From an uncultured Haloferula sp. (GTDB lineage Bacteria; Verrucomicrobiota; Verrucomicrobiia; Verrucomicrobiales; Akkermansiaceae), in NCBI GenBank assembly GCA_965652295.1, contig CBFGTS010000017.1, positions 1-64,000 on the forward strand: a stretch of DNA of 64,000 nucleotides, given 5' to 3'. Made by a program: the position numbers and the translations under genes. How positions within the stretch are numbered: position 1 is the stretch's first letter; each line of letters begins with the position of its first letter. The notes beneath the pieces are model-generated. The model was not told where the DNA came from. It worked only from the letters and a program-made list of their open reading frames with translations, and ran no database searches. Positions 47,904-58,494 of the stretch are shown one piece after another.

Positions 47904-48620
47904 GTGCGCGCCTTTGATCCGCTGGCGTTCCTGAAGCAGTTCGGTGACGAAGCGCGGCACCGAGGGCTCACCGCCCTGCGCCTCGCCGAAACCGCGGCCG
48001 GACCGGTGATGGCCTACACGCCCTCCTCCCCCGAGGGCGCGCGATATCTTTCCGCCGGGATCCATGGCGACGAACCCGCCGGCCCGCTTGCCGCACTTGA
48101 ATTGCTGCGTGGCGGACAGCTCGACGACGGCTGGATCATCTGCCCCGCGCTCAACCCCACCGGCCTCGCCGCCGCCACCCGGGAGAACGCCGAGGGTGTC
48201 GATTTGAACCGCGATTACCTCCGCCTCGAAACCGCCGAGATCCGTGCCCACGCTGCCTGGTTGGAATCGATGGTCACCCCGCAGGCCTTCGTTTCCCTGC
48301 ATGAGGACTGGGAATGCAGCGGGTTCTATTTTTACGAGATCAACCTTGGCGAAGACCGCCCGGAGCGGGCCCAAGCGATCCTCGATGCCGTCACTCCGTG
48401 CTTCCCGCCCGAGCCGGAAGCCAGCATCGACGACCACGACACCCGCGAGCCCGGCTGGATTTATCATGGTGCCGAGGCCGATCTGCCCCACGACTGGCCG
48501 GAAGCCATCTACCTCGCCAAACGCGGCTGCCCGATCTCCTTCACTTTCGAAACGCCGAGTTCGAAAGAACTCACGAAGCGCATCGCCGCCCACGTCGCCG
48601 CCTTTAAGGCGGCGATGTAG
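47904..48620 (+). CDS. M14 family Zn metallopeptidase / succinylglutamate desuccinylase-like
   Basis: SAGIHGDEPAG, NPTG, DLNRDY, SLHED, TFETPS; start uncertain. Confidence 0.85.
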   Translation: MRAFDPLAFLKQFGDEARHRGLTALRLAETAAGPVMAYTPSSPEGARYLSAGIHGDEPAGPLAALELLRGGQLDDGWIICPALNPTGLAAATRENAEGVDLNRDYLRLETAEIRAHAAWLESMVTPQAFVSLHEDWECSGFYFYEINLGEDRPERAQAILDAVTPCFPPEPEASIDDHDTREPGWIYHGAEADLPHDWPEAIYLAKRGCPISFTFETPSSKELTKRIAAHVAAFKAAM

Positions 48621-48695
48621 GAGGCGGGACGCCTCCGTCCCACAACCGGTGACGCCCGCTGCCACCCTCGCAGGACGAGGGCGTCCCGCCTCCTA
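48617..48695. repeat. GTAG-type REP doublet (inverted repeat)
   Basis: TAGGAGGCGGGACGCC (48618-48633)/GGCGTCCCGCCTCCTA (48680-48695); the GTAG includes the upstream stop codon. Confidence 0.65.
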
Positions 48696-48735
48696 TTTGA
48701 TCGAAGCGCCGCGACCGAGTCGTAGCATGGGTCAC

Positions 48736-50925
48736 ATGAAGTGGCTGCTGCCTTTTGCCCTCGTCGCCATCGCGACTGCGGAACCGGTCGATGAGTTCAT
48801 CTCCGCCGCCGCTTCGGAGCACGGTGCCTTCGGCGAAAAGGCGGCCCGTTTTCTGGTGGAGCACATGCCGGAGAAAGATCGCGACACTCTCAGCGCGGAT
48901 TTCCTGATCGAGAACCTCGATCTTGCACTGAAGGCTCGCGCGGTTTTCCCGTGGGCCCGGGATGTGCCGGAAGATCTCTTCCTTAACGACGTGCTTCCCT
49001 ACGCGGTGTTTGATGAAGCGCGCGACCCGTGGCGGGCGGATTTTTTCGAGAAGTGCGCCCCTCTCGTGAAGGACACCGCGACCGCCAGCGAGGCGGCGCA
49101 GCTCCTCAACAGGGAGTTCTTCGACCTGATCGGAACCCACTACGATACCCGCCGTAGCAAAACCAACCAGAGCCCGAAGGAATCGATGGAGCAGGGCAAG
49201 GCGACCTGCACCGGGCTCTCGATCCTGTTTGTCGATGCCTGTCGCGCGGTCGGCATCCCGGCACGAGCGGTCGGCACGCCGATGTGGTCCAATGGCCGCG
49301 GCAACCACACCTGGGTCGAGATCTGGGACGAGGGTTGGCGCTTCACCGGTGCGGACGAATACGACGAGGCCGGGCTGAACCGAGGGTGGTTCACCGCCGA
49401 TGCCGCGCAGGCCAAAGCCGACGACTCCGAACACGCGATCTATGCAACGAGCTGGCGGCGCGATGGCATCCATTTCCCCATGGTATGGTCGCCGGGCTCC
49501 AAGACCGTCGCCGCGGTCAACGTCACTCATCGCTATGCCAAGAATACCGACGTCCGCCCGCAGCTCGGCGTGCGCCTGTTCAGTGACGGCGAACGCATGG
49601 CGGGGAAAGGCTGGCTGACAAGCGCGAACGGCCGGCGGTTGGCGGAGTTCACGACCAAGGCCGGAACCACCGATCTGAACGACATGCCGCGGCTCGCCGT
49701 GACGCCCGGTCAAAGCTATCGCTTGTCCTTCGATGATCACGGCGAAACCCCGCCTTTCATCGCGGCAGCAGGCGAGAACACGCATGACGCCCGGCTCGCC
49801 GAGCTGACGCAGCCACCCGCGGCGGTCCTCGCGCTCGCCGCCGACCCCCTGGCCGACCCGTCGTTGTCCGCCGCGGATGCCGAACGCGTCATTTCCCTGC
49901 TCTCGGAGATCGAGCTGGAGAAAAGTCGCGCGGCGCGCGCCGCGGAGTTGGAGAAACGCGGGATCTCCCTCGATGGCACGACGTTGCGCTGGCTGGAAAA
50001 GGACTTCGGCGAGGCCGAGTCAGGCGGTCGCAGCCTGTGGATCTCCATGCACGGCGGCGGCGGCGCACCGACGGAGGTGAACGACCAGCAGTGGCGGAAC
50101 CAGATCGATCTCTACGAACCGGAGGAAGGCATTTACGTCGCCCCGCGGGCGCCGACGGATACCTGGAACCTGTGGCATCAGGACCACATCGATCCGCTCT
50201 TTTCGCGACTCATCGAGAGCATGATCGCGCTGCGCGGCGTGCATCCGAACAAGGTCTATTTGATGGGGTACTCCGCCGGCGGTGACGGCGTGTGGCAGCT
50301 CGCCCCGCGGATGGCGGACCGTTTCGCCGCGGCGGCGATGATGGCGGGCCACCCGAACGAGGCTTCGCTGCTGCCGCTGCGGAACCTGCCTTTTGCGATC
50401 TTCATGGGTGGCGAGGATGCGGCTTACGACCGGAACAAGATCGCCGCGGAACGGGTCGCCGAGCTCGGTCGTTTGCGAGCCTCCGATCCGCAGGGTTATG
50501 TTCACCTCGCCCGCATCTATGAAGGCCTCGGGCATTGGATGGACCGGCGAGATGCCGAGGCGCTGCCATGGATGGCCAAGTTCGAACGCGACCCGTGGCC
50601 GCGGAAGATCGTCTGGGTGCAGGACGACGTCACCCACCGCCGCTTCTACTGGCTGCAACTCCCTGGCAACTACGCGCCGCAGGCCGGTGAAAGGATCGAC
50701 GCCTCCGTGGACGGCCAGACCATTCATCTCTCCGAAAGCACGCCGCCGGGGACGGTGCTTCTCCTTCACGACGACCTGTTCGATCTCGACCGTCCGGTGC
50801 GGATCGAATGGCGCGGCCGGACCTTCGAGCGGAAACCCAAGCGTCACGCGGATGTCATCCGCCGGGCCCTCGCTTCGCGGCTCGACCCGCCTTCGTGCCC
50901 GACGGCGGAGGTCACCGTCGAGTAG
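48736..50925 (+). CDS. Exported transglutaminase-like domain plus alpha/beta-hydrolase (esterase) fusion protein
   Basis: Signal peptide; ATCTGLSI...CRAVGIPAR...NHTWVE; SMHGGG, GYSAGG, GLGHWM. Confidence 0.85.
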   Translation: MKWLLPFALVAIATAEPVDEFISAAASEHGAFGEKAARFLVEHMPEKDRDTLSADFLIENLDLALKARAVFPWARDVPEDLFLNDVLPYAVFDEARDPWRADFFEKCAPLVKDTATASEAAQLLNREFFDLIGTHYDTRRSKTNQSPKESMEQGKATCTGLSILFVDACRAVGIPARAVGTPMWSNGRGNHTWVEIWDEGWRFTGADEYDEAGLNRGWFTADAAQAKADDSEHAIYATSWRRDGIHFPMVWSPGSKTVAAVNVTHRYAKNTDVRPQLGVRLFSDGERMAGKGWLTSANGRRLAEFTTKAGTTDLNDMPRLAVTPGQSYRLSFDDHGETPPFIAAAGENTHDARLAELTQPPAAVLALAADPLADPSLSAADAERVISLLSEIELEKSRAARAAELEKRGISLDGTTLRWLEKDFGEAESGGRSLWISMHGGGGAPTEVNDQQWRNQIDLYEPEEGIYVAPRAPTDTWNLWHQDHIDPLFSRLIESMIALRGVHPNKVYLMGYSAGGDGVWQLAPRMADRFAAAAMMAGHPNEASLLPLRNLPFAIFMGGEDAAYDRNKIAAERVAELGRLRASDPQGYVHLARIYEGLGHWMDRRDAEALPWMAKFERDPWPRKIVWVQDDVTHRRFYWLQLPGNYAPQAGERIDASVDGQTIHLSESTPPGTVLLLHDDLFDLDRPVRIEWRGRTFERKPKRHADVIRRALASRLDPPSCPTAEVTVE

Positions 50926-50928
50926 CCC

Positions 50929-52878
50929 TCAGCAGAACTTCGCGTGGAGGATGTGGAGGCCGAGGAGGTGGTTGAGGAGGGCGTCCTTGCGGACGAGTGA
51001 AGTGGGGTCGCGGTCGGCGTCGTATTCCTTGAGGAAACCCTCCACCGCATCGGCGGAGAGGATGCCGCAGCGATTGACGGCGTCGCGGTTGAGGAAGGCG
51101 TCGATGAGTTCGCGAACCTTGGCCTTCTTCTTCTCGTCGGTGTGCGCGGGCGGGGCCATGAAGGCGAACTTCTCGCGCTTGTAGAGGATCTCGGGAAGGA
51201 CGCCGCAAACGGCCTCGCGGAGGACGTATTTCTCGATGTTGCCCTTGATGCGGTAATGCGGCGGCACCTTGAAGGCTGCCTCCGCGAGGTGGTGGTCGAG
51301 GAAGGCGGGGCGGCTTTCCATCGAGTTCGCCATGTCAACGCGGTCGCCGCCCCAGTTGAGGATCTGGCCTTCGAGCTGACACTTGGCCCAGGTGTACTGC
51401 GCGCGGTCGAGCGGGTGCCGGCCTTCCATCATCGAGTTGTCGATGCGTGAGGCGATTTCCTCGATGGGATCGTAGTCCTTCAGATGCTCGGCCACATCGG
51501 GATCGAGCAGCGGGCGGGCGAGGTCGAGGGTCTCCATCCAAGGCTGAAGCCAGGACGGCGTGAAGCCGCACATGGTGTCCCACGCGGGGTGGTGGCGGAC
51601 GTTTTCGGAGAGGATCGCGCCCTTGAAGAGCTTGTTGGTTTTCTCCAATGCCTCGGCGTATTCGGCGCGGATGTGCTCGGGCTCGTGGCTGATGCCGTGG
51701 AGGAACATGTCGCGCTTGAAGCCGGGGTAGCCGGCGAAAATCTCGTCGGAGCCCTCGCCGGTAACGACGCAGCGGTAACCGCATTCCCAGACGCGCTTGG
51801 ACATCAGATTCTTCGCCACGCCGAGGGTGTTGTAGAAGGTGCGCTCGGCGTGCCAGACGGTGTCGATGTAGTTCTCGCCGTAGAGATCGTCGGCGGCCAG
51901 GGTGATCATTTCCTGGTCGGCGTTCATCGACTCCGCCATCTCGCGGGCGATACTAGACTCGTCGTAGTCGTCGTTGTCGAAGGCGATGGTGAAGGCCTTG
52001 ACCGGCGATTGCATGGCGCCGGTGGCGAGGCCGAGGATGCAGCAGGAATCGATGCCGCCGCTGAGGTAGCAGCCGACCGGGACGTCGGCCTCAAGCCGGA
52101 GGACCACGGCGCGGGTGAGCTCCTCGCGGATCTTCTCGACGTGGTATTCCTCGTTCTCGGGCTGGTCGTGGCCGCCTTCTTCGGGGAAATCGAGGTCCCA
52201 GTATTTGATCTTCTCGATTGAAAGGCGGTCGCCGTTTTTCCGCACGCGGAGCAGGTGGCCGGGCGCGAGCGACTCGATGTTTTTGAACGCGCTCATGCCG
52301 GGCGCGATGGTCTGCATGAGCTGGTGCAGCGCGGCCTTTTCGTCGAGTTCGGCGGGGATCTCCGGGTGGGCGAGGAGGGCCTTGACCTCGGAACCCCAGT
52401 GGATGGTGTGGCCGTCCTGAACGTGGATGAAGAGCGGGCGGATACCCCAACGGTCGCGAACGAGGAGCAACTCGTCGTTCTCCTGATCATAGAGCGCGAA
52501 GGCGAACTCGCCGCGGAGGTGCTTGAGGAAATCGAGGCCGTGTTTGCGGTAGAGGCCGAGCGCGATCTCGGAGTCCGACTTGGTGCGGAACCGCTGGCCC
52601 TCGGCCATGAGGACGGAGCGGTGGAACTTGAAGTCGTAGAACTCGCCGTTGACGGTGGAAACGAAGCGGTCGTCGTACGAGCGGATCGGCTGGCAGCCGC
52701 CTTCGAGGTCGTTGATGGAGAGCCGAGTGTGCCCGAAGGCGATCCCACGTTCGGGCCGCAGCCAGGTGGTTTGCGCGTCGGGTCCACGGTGAAGGATGGC
52801 CTGGAGCTGATCGTGAAGGATCGGCTCACGGGCGTCGGTGAGAGGTCGGGCGGAAAAGCTGCCGGTAATGCCACACAT
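50929..52878 (-). CDS. asnB: Asparagine synthase (glutamine-hydrolysing)-family amidotransferase
   Basis: N-terminal MCGI (Ntn Cys), HRGPD, RLSINDL, NGEFY, RDRWGIRPL, LSGGIDS, TGEGSDE, DRVDMANSMESR.FLD. Confidence 0.93.
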   Translation of the reverse strand: MCGITGSFSARPLTDAREPILHDQLQAILHRGPDAQTTWLRPERGIAFGHTRLSINDLEGGCQPIRSYDDRFVSTVNGEFYDFKFHRSVLMAEGQRFRTKSDSEIALGLYRKHGLDFLKHLRGEFAFALYDQENDELLLVRDRWGIRPLFIHVQDGHTIHWGSEVKALLAHPEIPAELDEKAALHQLMQTIAPGMSAFKNIESLAPGHLLRVRKNGDRLSIEKIKYWDLDFPEEGGHDQPENEEYHVEKIREELTRAVVLRLEADVPVGCYLSGGIDSCCILGLATGAMQSPVKAFTIAFDNDDYDESSIAREMAESMNADQEMITLAADDLYGENYIDTVWHAERTFYNTLGVAKNLMSKRVWECGYRCVVTGEGSDEIFAGYPGFKRDMFLHGISHEPEHIRAEYAEALEKTNKLFKGAILSENVRHHPAWDTMCGFTPSWLQPWMETLDLARPLLDPDVAEHLKDYDPIEEIASRIDNSMMEGRHPLDRAQYTWAKCQLEGQILNWGGDRVDMANSMESRPAFLDHHLAEAAFKVPPHYRIKGNIEKYVLREAVCGVLPEILYKREKFAFMAPPAHTDEKKKAKVRELIDAFLNRDAVNRCGILSADAVEGFLKEYDADRDPTSLVRKDALLNHLLGLHILHAKFC

Positions 52879-52891
52879 GGTTTTGGAAGGA

Positions 52892-52926
52892 GAGATAGGT
52901 CGTATAAGTCCTATGGGACCTATTTC
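52892..52926. repeat. Hairpin built from degenerate 9-mer (ATAGGACCT-like) units between carbamoyltransferase and asnB genes
   Basis: GAGATAGGTC...GACCTATTTC; minus strand ATAGGTCCC ATAGGACTT ATACGACCT. Confidence 0.45.
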
Positions 52927-54011
52927 TAGGAGCCCGCGAATTCAGGAAGACGGTCAAGTCGGCCGAGCACCGCGAGCAGCAGCGCCTGGCGGACGAAGAC
53001 GGCCCCGTGAGCCTGGCTGAAGTAGAGGTTGTGCGGGGTTTTGTCCAAGGAGGTGTCCAGCTCATCAAGGCGGGCGAGCGGGTGGAGGATCACGGCTTCC
53101 TGCTTCAGCGGGCTGTCAGCGTCGAGCTTGTAGCGGGCGTCGAGCGCCTTGTAGGAGTCCCCGAGGAAGGCGATCGAGTTCATGTAAATCACATCGAGAC
53201 GCGGTAGGCTTTCGCGGATGTCGTTGGTGACCTCGTATTCGATGTTGGCGCGGTTGAGGCTCTCGGTGACGTCCTTGCCGAAGGGGTCGGCCATTTCCGA
53301 AATGACGGTGACCTTCTCGATGTGTTCGTGGAAAAGCAGCGCCATGAGCAGGAAGGATTTCACCGCGCGCATCGACCCGGGCGTGCCGAGGATGCCGAGC
53401 TGGAGTTTCTGGTCGCCGGTCTCGAAGGGTGCGGCGAGGCGGGGCTTCCATTTCAGCAGCGCATACCAGTCGGCCAGCGCCTGGGTCGGGTGCTCGCCGG
53501 AGCCGTTGCCGGCGTTGATGAGTGGGACGCGGAGGTTCTCGAGCATCTGCTTCGGCGCGTCGGTCTCGGTGTGACGCATGACGACGCAGTCGCAGTAGGC
53601 GTTGAACATTTCGCCGATGTCCTGGAGGGACTCGCCCTTCTTCGCGCCGGTCACGCCGCCATCGGGGATGGAAATGATCTTCCCGGCCAGGCGGTGGACG
53701 GCGCTCTCGAAGCTGGTGCGGGTGCGGGTGGAGGCTTCGAAGAAAGCGGTGGTGACGATTTTTCCATCGAGCGGATGGTAGGGCCAGATCTCGACCTGCT
53801 CGAGGAAGGCGGCGAGCTTGCACAGCTCGGCCACCTGCTGGAATGAGAACTGGCGGGCGTAGAGGACGTTCTGGCCGGAAAGTTCGGCCAGGACGTTGAG
53901 ATCGGGCGCGGCGGACGCAAAGAGGTTCCTCGGCTCGGGCCGGGTGGCGTCGGAGTCGCGCGGCGGCTTGAGATAGGGAGTCGCCGGGTTCGGCGTGAAT
54001 GCTTCGCTCAT
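52926..54011 (-). CDS. Aspartate/ornithine carbamoyltransferase-family protein (ATCase-like, altered acceptor site)
   Basis: FEASTRT, KKGES, MRH, NAGNGSGEHPTQ, HPL; YMNSIAF replaces YMTR.QKER; start moved to ATG 54011. Confidence 0.9.
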   Translation of the reverse strand: MSEAFTPNPATPYLKPPRDSDATRPEPRNLFASAAPDLNVLAELSGQNVLYARQFSFQQVAELCKLAAFLEQVEIWPYHPLDGKIVTTAFFEASTRTRTSFESAVHRLAGKIISIPDGGVTGAKKGESLQDIGEMFNAYCDCVVMRHTETDAPKQMLENLRVPLINAGNGSGEHPTQALADWYALLKWKPRLAAPFETGDQKLQLGILGTPGSMRAVKSFLLMALLFHEHIEKVTVISEMADPFGKDVTESLNRANIEYEVTNDIRESLPRLDVIYMNSIAFLGDSYKALDARYKLDADSPLKQEAVILHPLARLDELDTSLDKTPHNLYFSQAHGAVFVRQALLLAVLGRLDRLPEFAGS

Positions 54012-54034
54012 GGGTGAATCGAGGTTGGAGGGAG

Positions 54035-54154
54035 TTACCAAAGTTCGCCGCGCTTCCAGTCGCGGACCAGCAGCACGATCAAGGCAAGCGCGCCGAGACC
54101 GGTCCACACGAGGCCGAGGTAGACGAGGGCTTGGAGAAAGGTGGAGGAGAACAT
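54035..54154 (-). CDS. 39-aa single-TM small protein, probable SSS-transporter accessory subunit (not in ORF track)
   Basis: MFSSTFLQALVYLGLVWTGLGALALIVLLVRDWKRGELW*; starts 3 nt after the symporter stop; GC3-rich codons. Confidence 0.7.
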   Translation of the reverse strand: MFSSTFLQALVYLGLVWTGLGALALIVLLVRDWKRGELW

Positions 54155-54157
54155 GGC

Positions 54158-55579
54158 TTAGTGACCGATGGCATCGAGGGGCTTGGCTCCGATCCAGCGC
54201 GCGGCGAGGGTGAACACCATCGAGACCGCGCCGCCAACGAGTGCGCCGGTGTAGGTTTGGAGTTCAAAATACGCCCAAAGCCCGCTGGCACAACCGGCGA
54301 TGATTCCGGCGATGACGAGCGGGGCATTGAGTCGTTTCCAGAAGAGCCCGGCGATCACCGGCCAGATGAGGCTGGCGACGAGCGCGCCGGCGCTGAAGAG
54401 GACCTGATCGATGTTCCAGCCGCTGAGGGCGAGGCTCCAGGCGACCACGGAAACTACGATGATCGCCGTAGCGGCGACGGGGCGGAATTTCTGCGGATCG
54501 AGGTGCTGCTTGAAGACGCCCTCGTAGATGTCGCGGACCAGCAGGTCGGAGGTGGCGGCGAGGAGTGAATCGATCGAGGAAGCCATCGAGCAGAACAGCA
54601 CGACGAGGATGATGACGCCGGCGAACTGGCCCAGCCCGGCGAGGCCGAGGACGTGCTCGGCGACCTGCGGGCCGACTTTTCCGGGATCGGTTACGTTCAC
54701 GCCCAGCGGCCCCGCGCAGAGGGCGATGAAGCCGGCGGCGATCGGAATCGGGAACCACAGCACGCCGGAGAGGAAGAACGCCTTCGGCGCGACCTTTTCG
54801 CGCATGGCGAACGCGCGCGACCACCAGACGTTGTTGTGCATGACCTCGCCGAAGCCGAAGAGCATGTTGTTGAAAATGGCCAGCAGGGCGGCGGGCATCA
54901 TCACGTCGAGCAGCGCCGGCTGCTCCGCCATGAGGTGGCGGTGGACGGTGGGGACATCGACGTGATTGAGCACTTCGTAGCCGATGAAGACGATGCCGAT
55001 CAGGATGATCAGGCTCTGGATGAAATCGGTGCCGATGACCGCGTAGAGCCCGCCGAAGAGCGTGTAGAGCACGCAGACGACGAGGATCAACGTCATGCCG
55101 TGGACGTATTCGATGCCGCCGAGAGCCTCCAGCAGCTTGCCGCCGGCGATGGCCATGGTGACCAGCCAGGTGATGGAATACACCAGCGTAATGACGAGAA
55201 ATACGCCCCATCCCGTACGTCCGTAGCGCAGCCGGAAGAAATCGCCCGCGGTGACGCCCTCGGGGAGCAGCTTGCGGATGCGGAAGGCGAGCGGCGCGAA
55301 GAGCATCAACCCGAACGAGGCCGAGGCATAGGCGAGCATCCCCCAGACGCCTTTCTCGTAGGCGAGCAGCGGCGCGACCATGGTGGTGTTCGAGGTCACC
55401 CACGTAGCCATGGCGGTGGCGGTGCCGAGGGAAAGCCCGACGTTGCGTCCGGCGAGCATGAAACCCTCGCTGGTCTTCGCTTTCCTGCCCCACCACATGC
55501 CGAGCGCGACCCACAACACGCCCAGCCCGATGACGATGGCCCAGGCGGTGGAGTGGGAAATGGAAGCGGCGAGGATCAT
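54158..55579 (-). CDS. Sodium:solute symporter (SSS) family transporter
   Basis: About 13 TM helices; FMLAGRNVG, ATWVTSNT, YTLFGGLYAVIGTDFIQ, WWSRAFA, SSIDSLLAA; ATGA overlap with upstream gene. Confidence 0.92.
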   Translation of the reverse strand: MILAASISHSTAWAIVIGLGVLWVALGMWWGRKAKTSEGFMLAGRNVGLSLGTATAMATWVTSNTTMVAPLLAYEKGVWGMLAYASASFGLMLFAPLAFRIRKLLPEGVTAGDFFRLRYGRTGWGVFLVITLVYSITWLVTMAIAGGKLLEALGGIEYVHGMTLILVVCVLYTLFGGLYAVIGTDFIQSLIILIGIVFIGYEVLNHVDVPTVHRHLMAEQPALLDVMMPAALLAIFNNMLFGFGEVMHNNVWWSRAFAMREKVAPKAFFLSGVLWFPIPIAAGFIALCAGPLGVNVTDPGKVGPQVAEHVLGLAGLGQFAGVIILVVLFCSMASSIDSLLAATSDLLVRDIYEGVFKQHLDPQKFRPVAATAIIVVSVVAWSLALSGWNIDQVLFSAGALVASLIWPVIAGLFWKRLNAPLVIAGIIAGCASGLWAYFELQTYTGALVGGAVSMVFTLAARWIGAKPLDAIGH

Positions 55580-56130
55580 CGCGATTTGGCAAACCCGTGG
55601 AGGATGGCTCCGATGGTGAGGACGGCGACAAACGCACCGGTGCCGAGCAACAGGTGGAGCTGCCCGCGGTGCATGTATTCGACCTTGATCCGGAGCGGCT
55701 CCGACCACTCGGTGGCTCCTGTTTCGCGGACGCGGAAATGGTAGGTCCCTTCGGCGAGGCCGGTCAGCACGCTCTCGGTGTCAGGACCGCGGTAGCGCAG
55801 GTGCGCGTCGGAGAAATCGGCGTCGGTGCTTTGTTGCAGCTCGTATTCGGGTCCTTCGCCCCGCCAGACGAGGTCGATGGTGCCGTCGTCGCTGACTCCG
55901 GCTCTCGGGCCGAGATCGCTTTCCAGCAAAGGCGCGGCCATCGCGGAGCCGACCACTCCACCCACGACGAGGCCGGCGAAAACCGACCTGCAGAAATGGA
56001 TGTTGGGCGAAGGAAGAAAGATGGTTCCGTCGGGTTGGATGGCGGCTGTCCGGCAACGGCGGTTGCTGAAAAACGGCGCGGCTACCCTTGGGTCTAACCG
56101 CCGCGATGGCAAATTCTTTCTGGAATCCAT
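55576..56130 (-). CDS. Membrane-anchored protein with fibronectin-III-like domain
   Basis: IDLVW...YELQQS...YRGPD...LTGLAEGTYHFRVR...WSEPL plus C-terminal TM; true start uncertain and probably downstream of 56130. Confidence 0.65.
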   Translation of the reverse strand: MDSRKNLPSRRLDPRVAAPFFSNRRCRTAAIQPDGTIFLPSPNIHFCRSVFAGLVVGGVVGSAMAAPLLESDLGPRAGVSDDGTIDLVWRGEGPEYELQQSTDADFSDAHLRYRGPDTESVLTGLAEGTYHFRVRETGATEWSEPLRIKVEYMHRGQLHLLLGTGAFVAVLTIGAILHGFAKSR

Positions 56131-56156
56131 GCCGTCGCACGCGTTGGGTGGACCTC

Positions 56157-57413
56157 ATGGTCGAGACGATGCCCGAAATATCCATCGAAAGGCTCGGCGG
56201 CGATCTACGGGAACTCTCGGAGATCGGACGCGCGGAGGATGGCGGCGTGTACCGCATGGCTTTCACCGAGGCCGACATGCGCGGCAAGGCATGGCTGGAG
56301 CAGCGCATGCAGGACGCGGGCCTGGAAACCTCGCGCGATGGCGCGTGCAACGTGATCGGCCGGCTCGCCGGAAAAAACGCGGAGGCCCCCGCGCTGGTGA
56401 TCGGCTCCCACATCGACACGGTGCCGTGCGCCGGGATCCTCGATGGCACCCTGGGCGTGCTGACCGGGCTCGAATGCCTGCGCGCGGTGAAGGAAAGCGG
56501 CCGCGTGCCGGAGCGCGACATCGAGCTGATCGCCTTCTCCGATGAGGAAGGCCGCTTCGGCGGCATGCTCGGCTCGCAGGCATTCGCCGGGCAGGTCACG
56601 CCGGATGTCATCCACACCGCGGTCGATCCCGCGGGCGAAAAAATGGCCGATGCGATGGCCGCGCACGGCCTCGATCCCTGGCTCGCGTTGCAGGCGCGGC
56701 GCGATCCGCAGACGATCGCCGCCTACCTGGAGCTGCACATCGAGCAGGGCCCGGTGCTTTCCGGAAACGACGAGCAGATCGGCGTGGTCGAGGCGATCAC
56801 CGGGCTCTTCAAGTGGACCGTGACGCTTTCCGGCGAGCCGAACCACGCCGGCACCACGCCCATGCCGATGCGGCGCGACGCGTTCATGGGCGTGGCCGAT
56901 TTCGCCCACGAGATCCCGCGCCTGCTCGACGAGAACGGCTCCGAACGCTCGCGGGCGACGATCGGCCGCGTGGATCTCACGCCCGGCTCCGCCAACACGG
57001 TGCCGGGCGAGGCCCGGTTCACCCTCGACGTGCGCGATACGGACGAGACGGTGATGCACGAACTCGCCGACTCCGCACGCAAGGCGCTCAACGCGATCGC
57101 CCGACGCCGCGGGCTGCGTTTCAACTACGAGGTCGATAGCTGGATCAATCCGGTCGATTGCGATGCCGCGCTTTCCGACATGGTTGAAGCCGCGGCGAAA
57201 GACGCGGGCACCCGTTTCCGCCGCATGATCTCGGGTGCCGCCCACGATGCGCAGATCGTCGCCTCGCTCTGTCCCGTAGGCATGATTTTCGTCCCGTCGC
57301 TGGAGGGAAAATCCCACTCGCCCGCGGAATGGACCGCCTGGGACGACATCGAGGCCGGGGCCCGCGTCATGCTCGGCACGATCGAACGCTTCGCCTTCCC
57401 ATCCGCTTCCTGA
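56157..57413 (+). CDS. Zn-dependent N-carbamoyl-L-amino-acid amidohydrolase / allantoate amidohydrolase family (M20)
   Basis: GSHIDTV, GILDG.LGV, EEGRF, YLELHIEQGP, NHAGTTPM, SGAAHDA, SHSPAE; start 56157 or 56169. Confidence 0.93.
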   Translation: MVETMPEISIERLGGDLRELSEIGRAEDGGVYRMAFTEADMRGKAWLEQRMQDAGLETSRDGACNVIGRLAGKNAEAPALVIGSHIDTVPCAGILDGTLGVLTGLECLRAVKESGRVPERDIELIAFSDEEGRFGGMLGSQAFAGQVTPDVIHTAVDPAGEKMADAMAAHGLDPWLALQARRDPQTIAAYLELHIEQGPVLSGNDEQIGVVEAITGLFKWTVTLSGEPNHAGTTPMPMRRDAFMGVADFAHEIPRLLDENGSERSRATIGRVDLTPGSANTVPGEARFTLDVRDTDETVMHELADSARKALNAIARRRGLRFNYEVDSWINPVDCDAALSDMVEAAAKDAGTRFRRMISGAAHDAQIVASLCPVGMIFVPSLEGKSHSPAEWTAWDDIEAGARVMLGTIERFAFPSAS

Positions 57414-57417
57414 ACCC

Positions 57418-58161
57418 ATGTCCGTCACCTCCATCACCGACCCCCTCCGCCAGCAATATCGCGAAGCCTTTGTCACCAATCCGCGCCGCGCGGAGCACCT
57501 CGCCGATGGCAAGGTGGCGCTGTTGTGCATCGACGTGCAGTACCTCGACGCGGCCGATGGCTACGGGCTCTTCGCCGATCCCGACACGAGCGGCGTGCCG
57601 GAGGAGGGACGGAAGTACTACTTCGAGCGTTTGGAAACGCTGGTGCTGCCCGGCATGCGGCTGCTGCAGGATGCGTTCCGCGGCGAGAAGCTGGAGGTCA
57701 TCCACATTCGGATCTGCGCGCTGACCCACGACGGCCGGGACCGGAGCGCCGGGCACCGACGGCTCAACCTGCTGGCCGCTCCCGGCAGCAAGGAGGCGGA
57801 GTTTCTCGAGCAGGTCGCGCCGGAGGGCGATGAGATCGTGATCAACAAAACCGCCAGCGGCGTATTCTCCAGCACCAACATCCATTACGTGCTCGGCAAC
57901 CTCGGCATCCGCTCGCTCTATCTCTGCGGCGTCTACACCAACGAGTGCGTCGAGACCGCCGCACGCGACGCCTGCGACCTCGGGTATTTCGTGACGATCG
58001 TCGAGGATGCCTGCGCGACGGTGACCGAGCGCCTGCACGAGGCCTCGCTGGCGACGCTGCGCGACCGCTACGCGCGGATCAATTCCGTGCGCGATGTGCT
58101 GAGGGAACTCGACGTCCTGCGCGACAGCTCCACGGCCGCAATCCTCTCGCGGACCGAATAG
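57418..58161 (+). CDS. Isochorismatase-family cysteine hydrolase
   Basis: Asp-Lys-Cys triad: IDVQ, NKTASGVF, GVYTNECVETAARDA. Confidence 0.92.
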   Translation: MSVTSITDPLRQQYREAFVTNPRRAEHLADGKVALLCIDVQYLDAADGYGLFADPDTSGVPEEGRKYYFERLETLVLPGMRLLQDAFRGEKLEVIHIRICALTHDGRDRSAGHRRLNLLAAPGSKEAEFLEQVAPEGDEIVINKTASGVFSSTNIHYVLGNLGIRSLYLCGVYTNECVETAARDACDLGYFVTIVEDACATVTERLHEASLATLRDRYARINSVRDVLRELDVLRDSSTAAILSRTE

Positions 58162-58419: not shown

Positions 58420-58494
58420 TGGCAACCCGTAGGGGAATCGAACCCCTATTGCCAGAATGAAAATCTGGAGTCCTAACCGTTAGACGAACGGGTC
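58420..58494 (-). tRNA. tRNA-Glu (anticodon TTC)
   Basis: GACCCGTTCGTCTAACGGTTAGGACTCCAGATTTTCATTCTGGCAATAGGGGTTCGATTCCCCTACGGGTTGCCA; cloverleaf, anticodon arm CCAGA-TT TTC AT-TCTGG, GTTCGA T-loop, encoded CCA. Confidence 0.97.

Follow-up and report, generated by a model that had tools for sequence, protein, structure and literature searches.

A seven-gene cassette lies in positions 1-64000 of contig C17 (G000:C17:1-64000; the window) of an uncultured Haloferula sp. genome (4.37 Mb, 98% complete). It is most likely a module for synthesis, uptake and degradation of a nitrogen-rich solute protecting against salt, and we lean, if only slightly, towards N-carbamoyl-glutamine amide (CGA) as that solute. 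The analysis shows the gene anatomy, residue changes in the encoded proteins, co-inheritance of the genes and the presence of the transferase in a species that produces CGA; activities and product are proposed. The module is real and conserved. Its transferase, resembling aspartate transcarbamylase (ATCase), belongs to the marine pseudo-ATCase group and is no ATCase, and the logic of the module is like that of the N-acetylglutaminylglutamine amide (NAGGN) system.

In the proposed scheme, the transferase would move the carbamoyl group of carbamoyl phosphate made by CarAB to the alpha-amino group of glutamine, as the retained catalytic residues suggest, and the amidotransferase would then spend ATP and glutamine to amidate the alpha-carboxyl group, giving an uncharged solute with four nitrogens. 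A glutamate acceptor followed by double amidation would lead to the same product. A Na+-coupled DUR3-like symporter would recapture leaked or environmental solute, and the divergent hydrolase pair would reverse synthesis, amidase first and carbamoylase second, to return glutamine, two NH3 and CO2.

Gene anatomy and co-inheritance

All seven genes are present and unbroken, five on the minus strand and two on the plus strand. The minus-strand operon opens with a 148-aa protein carrying a signal peptide, an Fn3-like domain and a C-terminal transmembrane (TM) segment (55576..56022; probable ATC start), followed by a 473-aa DUR3-related sodium:solute symporter (SSS; 54158..55579; PF00474, E 1.5e-28), a 39-aa single-TM peptide conserved among loci (54035..54154), the 361-aa ATCase-like transferase, which scores under every ATCase cut-off (52926..54011), and a 649-aa AsnB-type glutamine-dependent amidotransferase with an N-terminal Cys (50929..52878; PF13537 and PF00733). 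The stop codon of the first gene overlaps the start of the symporter gene (ATGA), and the subsequent gaps measure 3, 23 and 47 nt. Facing the operon on the plus strand are genes for a 418-aa M20 L-N-carbamoylase (56157..57413; TIGR01879 388, cut-off 204) and a 247-aa isochorismatase-family cysteine hydrolase (57418..58161; PF00857), separated by 4 nt. This layout had been described in a sequence-only reading of the DNA, and all of its parts were found intact; its statement that pyrC, pyrI and carAB are not adjacent also stood, the genes flanking the cassette being none of these. Its Fn3 label for the membrane protein drew no Pfam or NCBIfam match and rests on an ESM-Atlas cluster name (score 0.97).

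To assess co-inheritance, 56 named Verrucomicrobia loci were chosen by similarity to the transferase, which in the host genome is 93% identical to a Haloferula sargassicola protein, and partners were counted within 8 kb. The symporter and peptide genes occurred in 56/56, the AsnB-type gene in 55, the Fn3-like gene in 53 and the M20 and amidase genes in 43 each; some of the misses fall on short contigs, and the single AsnB miss lies at a contig end. This linkage exceeds chance. In some of these loci the hydrolase pair diverges from the operon; in others it follows downstream and co-directionally. Split tblastn matches in the cassette genes of L026, L043, L044, L045, L051 and L053 suggest frameshifts, possibly assembly errors.

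Across 201 genomes of the family, scored with presence thresholds chosen to pick orthologues, an identical set of 21 matched the transferase, symporter, M20 and amidase proteins and held an AsnB orthologue (71-100% identical; next-best AsnB match 39%), so that the five largest genes are shared by the same 21/201 genomes and the predicted co-occurrence in other genomes was confirmed. In G438 the hydrolase pair lies on a separate contig yet is still present. A phylum-wide sample gave matches in 4/301 genomes. A high-GC motif scan supplied a second set of 42 metagenome loci, many of them on short contigs, in which the partners were AsnB (35), SSS (31), peptide (31), amidase (20), M20 (17) and Fn3 (14). 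Of 7998 scored transferase candidates, 2371 reached E<=1e-60, and the clade comprises > 2000 sequence clusters. Carriers by name include Kordiimonas, Kangiella, Pseudidiomarina, Pseudoalteromonas, Thioalkalivibrio, Nitrosococcus and Ectothiorhodospira, among others, genera that we take to live mostly in the sea, in soda lakes or in hypersaline places. Identity stayed at or under 35% in each of the best 80 of 300 viral-contig matches, and among the 30 matches listed from 37 matched plasmid records, identity was 29-35% and the genes were ordinary pyrB where annotated.

Active sites, transport and operon start

The transferase failed the ATCase equivalog cut-offs (TIGR00670, 177 versus 237 bits; NF002032, 173 versus 263). 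Its AlphaFold2 model (pLDDT 89.8) has the ATCase fold (TMq about 0.76 to 1ML4/1EKX), and its motifs are STRT, HPTQ, MRAV, NSIAF and HPLA. In E. coli ATCase numbering, the STRT motif, K84, R105, H134 and Q137 serve carbamoyl phosphate, R167 binds the alpha-carboxylate, and R229 and Q231 bind the beta-carboxylate of aspartate. For a motif survey, 588 sequences of 290-450 aa were split, independently of motifs, at a gap in identity (37% to the query) into 475 clade members and 113 others. STRT and the equivalents of K84, R105, H134 and Q137 were retained in 475/475 clade members and that of R167 in 474/475. The R229 equivalent was replaced by A, S, T or V and the Q231 equivalent was never Q, such that 0/475 keep either and small neutral residues take their places, versus R in 95 and Q in 91 of the 113 non-clade sequences; the host transferase has S279-I-A281 at the R229-x-Q231 positions. 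Because the carbamoyl-phosphate and alpha-carboxylate ligands are kept and R229/Q231 are lost, the enzyme should carbamoylate an L-amino acid that has a free alpha-carboxyl group and a side chain other than that of aspartate, and a substrate loop without a new basic residue would favour a neutral side chain such as that of glutamine. We propose a neutral L-amino acid as the acceptor, probably glutamine.

Elsewhere the genome holds a canonical pyrB with RxQ (C2:190319-191254), as the sequence-only reading had anticipated, together with argF, carB and pyrC. The transferase is not the sole ATCase-like protein of the genome, and with its aspartate ligands lost it was rejected as a housekeeping ATCase. 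The carbamate kinase model TIGR00746 had no match above cut-off in the host genome, so the transferase likely runs forward. Two further sets of ATCase-like sequences were noted. Those with decayed STRT/HPTQ motifs (P0142-P0144, P0150, P0155, P0158, P0159, P0163, P0188, P0194, P0230, P0253, P0275 and P0276) branch with the clade and are possibly catalytically dead relatives, and P0123, P0125 and P0127 form a divergent branch (one from Actinophytocola) with substrate loops QNALV, QNVIA and LNSLT that may use another amino acid.

In the amidotransferase, Cys2, HRGPD, NGE, SGGxDS and GxDE are conserved across 76-83 aligned loci, leaving the glutaminase and ATP-pyrophosphatase motifs intact. The protein passes TIGR01536 (377 versus 267 bits), fails NF006949 (246 versus 499), and has a hydroxyamidotransferase as its best PDB match. 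Membership of the NAGGN system was rejected, since the score against the NAGGN amidotransferase model TIGR03104 was 254 (cut-off 570) and the best Ngg score (TIGR03103) in the host genome was 34 (cut-off 569). A second, canonical asnB had been expected elsewhere in the genome; instead, the cassette gene is the only full-length AsnB, and with AsnA not found in the host genome a side role in asparagine supply is possible. GatB is present, however, and in 139/201 relatives nothing matches AsnB at E<=1e-15, so being the sole AsnB does not make the cassette gene the asparagine supplier. On these grounds, and because the gene tracks the transferase exactly among the 201 family genomes, a housekeeping AsnB is unlikely, and we propose that the enzyme would carry out the alpha-carboxyl amidation.

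For the M20 enzyme, the metal ligands and the His230/Asn280/Arg293 triad are conserved in 56-59 of 58-59 loci, and the score against the model for ErtE, an N-carbamoyl-Glu hydrolase, was 392 (cut-off 520). The His/Asn/Arg triad of L-carbamoylases binds a free carboxylate; with the triad kept, the amide would have to be removed before the M20 enzyme could, as proposed, take off the carbamoyl group. The isochorismatase-family hydrolase keeps D39 (59/59 loci), K144 (62/62) and C177 (62/62), falls under the RutB and BiuH cut-offs, and is a fitting candidate for the alpha-amidase step.

The closest solved structures to the symporter are plant DUR3 (E 1.6e-30) and then a choline transporter (1.4e-11). 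DUR3 pocket residues were placed by hand on the structure-match alignment, with numbering after PMC11840088, and counted over the loci. As in the urea:H+ symporter DUR3, the urea-site equivalents W93, T98, Y117, W338 and P342 are kept. Unlike DUR3, the cassette protein has W95>T (80/80), Q124>G (80/80), Y461>L (84/84), N305>G/S and Y315>W, and has lost the proton sites D312 (>N/S) and E402; it carries T184-D185 and S334, invariant in 54 aligned copies. In SSS transporters, the TD pair and the serines of TM8 have a role in Na+ binding. A plain urea transporter was rejected given the replacement of W95, Y461 and D312, the first two of which are required for urea transport by DUR3 (PMC11840088), and the residue pattern, in which the urea pocket is enlarged, suggests that Na+ drives the transport of a bulkier ureido compound.

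The 39-aa peptide, whose C-terminal W is invariant in 54 aligned copies, is possibly an accessory subunit of the transporter, judging from its position. The Fn3-like gene probably starts at ATC 56022 and not at ATG 56130: the ATC at 56020-56022 (minus strand) does not vary among 12 aligned intergenic regions, and across 48 loci the start window contained no ATG, GTG or TTG in 19 (one probably frameshifted) and ATC or ATT in 35. Such a start could limit or regulate translation of the operon's first gene. Upstream, an intergenic block (56084..56123, minus strand), likewise invariant in the 12 regions, contains a hexamer resembling a -35 box, with a weak -10 at 17 nt. It is a possible promoter of the minus-strand operon, of weak consensus, or a regulator site; the sigma-70 scan missed it, and the promoter/terminator scan performed at chance level.

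Beyond the cassette, a tRNA-Glu gene lies at 58420-58494 of the window (minus strand), 260 nt past the amidase gene; as flanking genes vary among relatives and GC content is unremarkable, it could be the trace of an old insertion site. On the other side, a long plus-strand ORF (48244-50925) fuses a transglutaminase-like core with an esterase/PHB-depolymerase-like domain; it is convergent with the AsnB-type gene, 4 nt away, and is not a recurrent neighbour in relatives.

Osmotic context and alternative explanations

CGA is produced by Ectothiorhodospira marismortui (PMC1224877). That name resolves to E. mobilis, and three E. mobilis proteins (SFM47505.1, MBK1691713.1 and MCG5536699.1) fall within the transferase clade, one of them 47% identical to the host protein. 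We assume that SFM47505.1 comes from the marismortui strain. The suggestion that the cassette occurs in Ectothiorhodospira was therefore borne out for the transferase, the gene whose records were inspected in this genus. Further carriers of the transferase are Thiorhodospira sibirica, Ectothiorhodosinus mongolicus and E. magna, which in the accessible text of Imhoff 2020 (PMC7824335) are described as having no betaine or ectoine synthesis genes; CGA is named there among the candidate solutes of T. sibirica and Ectothiorhodosinus mongolicus.

Gene neighbourhoods point the same way. Twenty-nine of the 42 metagenome loci reach > 1 kb past the cassette, and eight (L150, L153, L156, L160, L162, L166, L176 and L181) adjoin genes for a betaine-type methyltransferase (the GSMT/SDMT label is assigned from Pfam class and context), BCCT/ProVWX/OpuAC or sucrose synthase. 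The flank scan covered 101 of 232 called ORFs, namely non-core ORFs within 5.2 kb, and these 101 included no urease, carbamate kinase or N-regulator family. MarR genes flank 7/56 Verrucomicrobia and 10/42 metagenome loci. The linked MarR of L162 shares 41-48% identity with its top 20 plasmid matches, and 4/4 inspected of the 37 matched lie at ectABC or ectA/proVWX; the MarR regulators of ectoine loci are presumably EctR/CosR. In the host genome itself, profiles for EctC, OtsA, BCCT, Ngg, GSMT and ProX/OpuAC had no match.

Expression data come from Synechococcus WH8102, where a 0.125 M NaCl shock changed 102 genes, 82 of them upwards (PMC2874817). SYNW2454 (+0.78 log2) and SYNW2453 (+0.62), likely orthologues of cassette genes, ranked 4th and 6th of the 82 induced by fold change, with GsmT/SdmT beside them at +0.87. 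SYNW2454, described as a third transcarbamylase besides two others in WH8102 (PMC2242806), is probably the orthologue of the transferase, judged from the published description and not from its sequence.

Several observations weigh against this osmolyte reading. The 21 co-inheriting genomes are related and not independent, the cassette-linked MarR was not found in the host genome, and in L141 and L178 M20 is present without an adjoining amidase. The pocket data exclude aspartate only, leaving glutamine as a proposed acceptor. CGA is described as a minor solute, reported from a single organism (PMC3857566), set against > 2000 clusters in the clade. In WH8102, salt also raised the nitrogen genes SYNW2462 (+0.89), nitrite reductase (+0.59) and cyanate lyase (+0.42), and the salt-changed list lacks SYNW2452 and SYNW2455 (PMC2874817); with nitrate, nitrite and cyanate genes rising together, the induction may be nitrogen-driven. 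Rhodopirellula baltica carries the cluster (Barba 2013, PMC4016543), and the solutes reported from nuclear magnetic resonance over a range of salinities are sucrose, glutamate, trehalose and mannosylglucosylglycerate but not CGA, the word carbamoyl not occurring in the accessible text (PMC3694870). In the available salinity data for that species RB13301 is not listed, and RB13300 and RB13294, neighbours of unverified identity, are up (PMC2754498). Finally, the picocyanobacterial cluster is enriched in N-depleted waters, which is awkward for a four-nitrogen osmolyte, though it favours the Red Sea as well (Doré, 10.1101/2022.08.17.504260). The proposal of an osmolyte or nitrogen-storage module thus gained independent, circumstantial support for the osmotic role, whereas the identity of the solute as CGA is unproven and one cluster carrier has been reported without it.

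Two alternatives survive best, both of them unlikely in our estimate. One keeps the chemistry and the osmotic role and changes the backbone (Asn, Ala, Gly, Ser, Met or similar), possibly by sub-clade. The limited reach of the pocket data would allow this, the osmotic context fits it equally well, and the Verrucomicrobial and E. mobilis branches are only ~45% identical, with MRAV/NSIAF in the first and MRTV/NAIAW in the second; nevertheless, the clade-specific N278, M214, A313 and N328 are common to both branches (473-475/475), and the one such solute known so far is made by a species among the carriers. The other, to which we give the same low weight, is a nitrogen store or scavenging system without a main osmotic role, in which the ureido-amide would be built when nitrogen is plentiful, or imported, and degraded when it is short. 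It draws on the DUR3 ancestry of the transporter, on enrichment in niches depleted of both N and P (Doré, 10.1101/2022.08.17.504260), on the co-induction of N-assimilation genes by salt in WH8102 and on the lack of reported bulk CGA in R. baltica. The neighbouring genes argue against it, being those for betaine, sucrose and an ectoine-type regulator with no urease, carbamate kinase or N-regulator family in the scanned flanks, as do the habitats of the named carriers.

Uptake and catabolism of urea or ureides, with a phosphorolytic transferase like the ureidoglycine carbamoyltransferase of Rubrobacter, is very unlikely. A sister pseudo-ATCase works in this way in Rubrobacter (Barba 2013, PMC4016543), the amidase weakly resembles biuret and RutB hydrolases, and the host genome has urease; but carbamate kinase had no match above cut-off there, in contrast to what the catabolic transcarbamylases of that type would lead one to expect, the DUR3 residues W95 and Y461 are replaced by T and L in every aligned locus, and an ATP-consuming amide ligase adjoins the transferase in all but one of the 56 loci. 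Explanations other than these together receive a smaller share of our belief still. Least probable of all is a back-up for pyrimidine and asparagine synthesis, as in the database labels and the 'alternative pyrimidine biosynthesis' of Doré 2023, which has in its favour the ATCase fold and an only AsnB that passes TIGR01536, and against it the universal loss of R229/Q231 in the clade, the pyrB, pyrC and gatB genes elsewhere, the many relatives without AsnB and a carbamoylase that would undo carbamoyl-aspartate.

Relation to described systems

The sequence-only reading had missed that the cluster itself was already in print (PMC4016543; Doré), although the function proposed here is absent from the accessible parts of those sources. 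Barba 2013 (PMC4016543) described the marine pseudo-ATCase group and its synteny block and assigned no function. The cassette transferase shares with that group the STRT, HPTQ, HPLA and SIA motifs, an adjoining Na+ symporter, Asn-related enzyme and HyuC-type hydrolase, and a true pyrB elsewhere, the group having AIA, AIS or SIA where ATCases have RxQ; two of its members, N. oceani ABA57291.1 and K. koreensis ACV27461.1, belong to the transferase clade and share its motifs (42-43% identity). The AsnB neighbour is called a 'putative asparaginase' there, and no mention of the amidase, the two membrane proteins or an osmolyte was found in the available text. The labels in that paper look swapped, since the Table 1 motif row for 'pseudo-ATCase 1' fits the marine group that its text names 'Subgroup 3'.

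Doré et al. (10.1101/2022.08.17.504260; PMC10119275) assign asnB-pyrB2-pydC of Prochlorococcus and Synechococcus either to an alternative route of pyrimidine synthesis or to the recycling of N. The cassette has the same three gene types, and Synechococcus-like loci appear to belong to the transferase clade, differing in that L141 and L178 have no adjacent amidase; the lost aspartate ligands argue against the pyrimidine reading of that cluster.

Compared with PyrB (EC 2.1.3.2), the transferase shares the fold, the carbamoyl-phosphate site and the alpha-carboxylate Arg, and differs in having SIA for RxQ, HPLA for HPLP and no link to pyrC or pyrI. In the NAGGN system (asnO, ngg, a peptidase and a MarR gene), an amino group is capped and a carboxyl group is amidated by an AsnB paralogue, with a hydrolase nearby. 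The cassette follows the same cap-and-amidate logic with a nearby hydrolase, but the cap would be a carbamoyl group placed by a transcarbamylase and not an acetyl group, on one amino acid and not on a dipeptide, and the host genome has no Ngg.

New here are the intact Verrucomicrobial copy, the exact co-inheritance of five genes, the link to salt-shock data and the mapping of the transporter pocket; the cluster itself was known. For CGA, a solute known since 1991, the cassette offers candidate genes: we found none assigned in the literature, with subscription journals mostly outside our coverage, and found no link in print between CGA and the cluster. If the osmolyte reading is true, it names a function for a mis-annotated transcarbamylase clade of > 2000 sequence clusters, corrects the way a niche-linked cluster in marine picocyanobacteria has been read ('alternative pyrimidine') and points to a nitrogen-rich solute in the sea that has so far gone unmeasured. 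A broader version, which we put forward tentatively and with less than even confidence, is that glutamine N-carbamoyltransferase would be a new activity and CGA, instead of a curiosity of one purple sulfur bacterium, a widespread nitrogen-rich marine osmolyte of Verrucomicrobia, Proteobacteria, Planctomycetes and open-ocean Synechococcus, made, leaked and traded through a dedicated ureido-solute transporter of the DUR3 line, and an overlooked pool of dissolved organic nitrogen.

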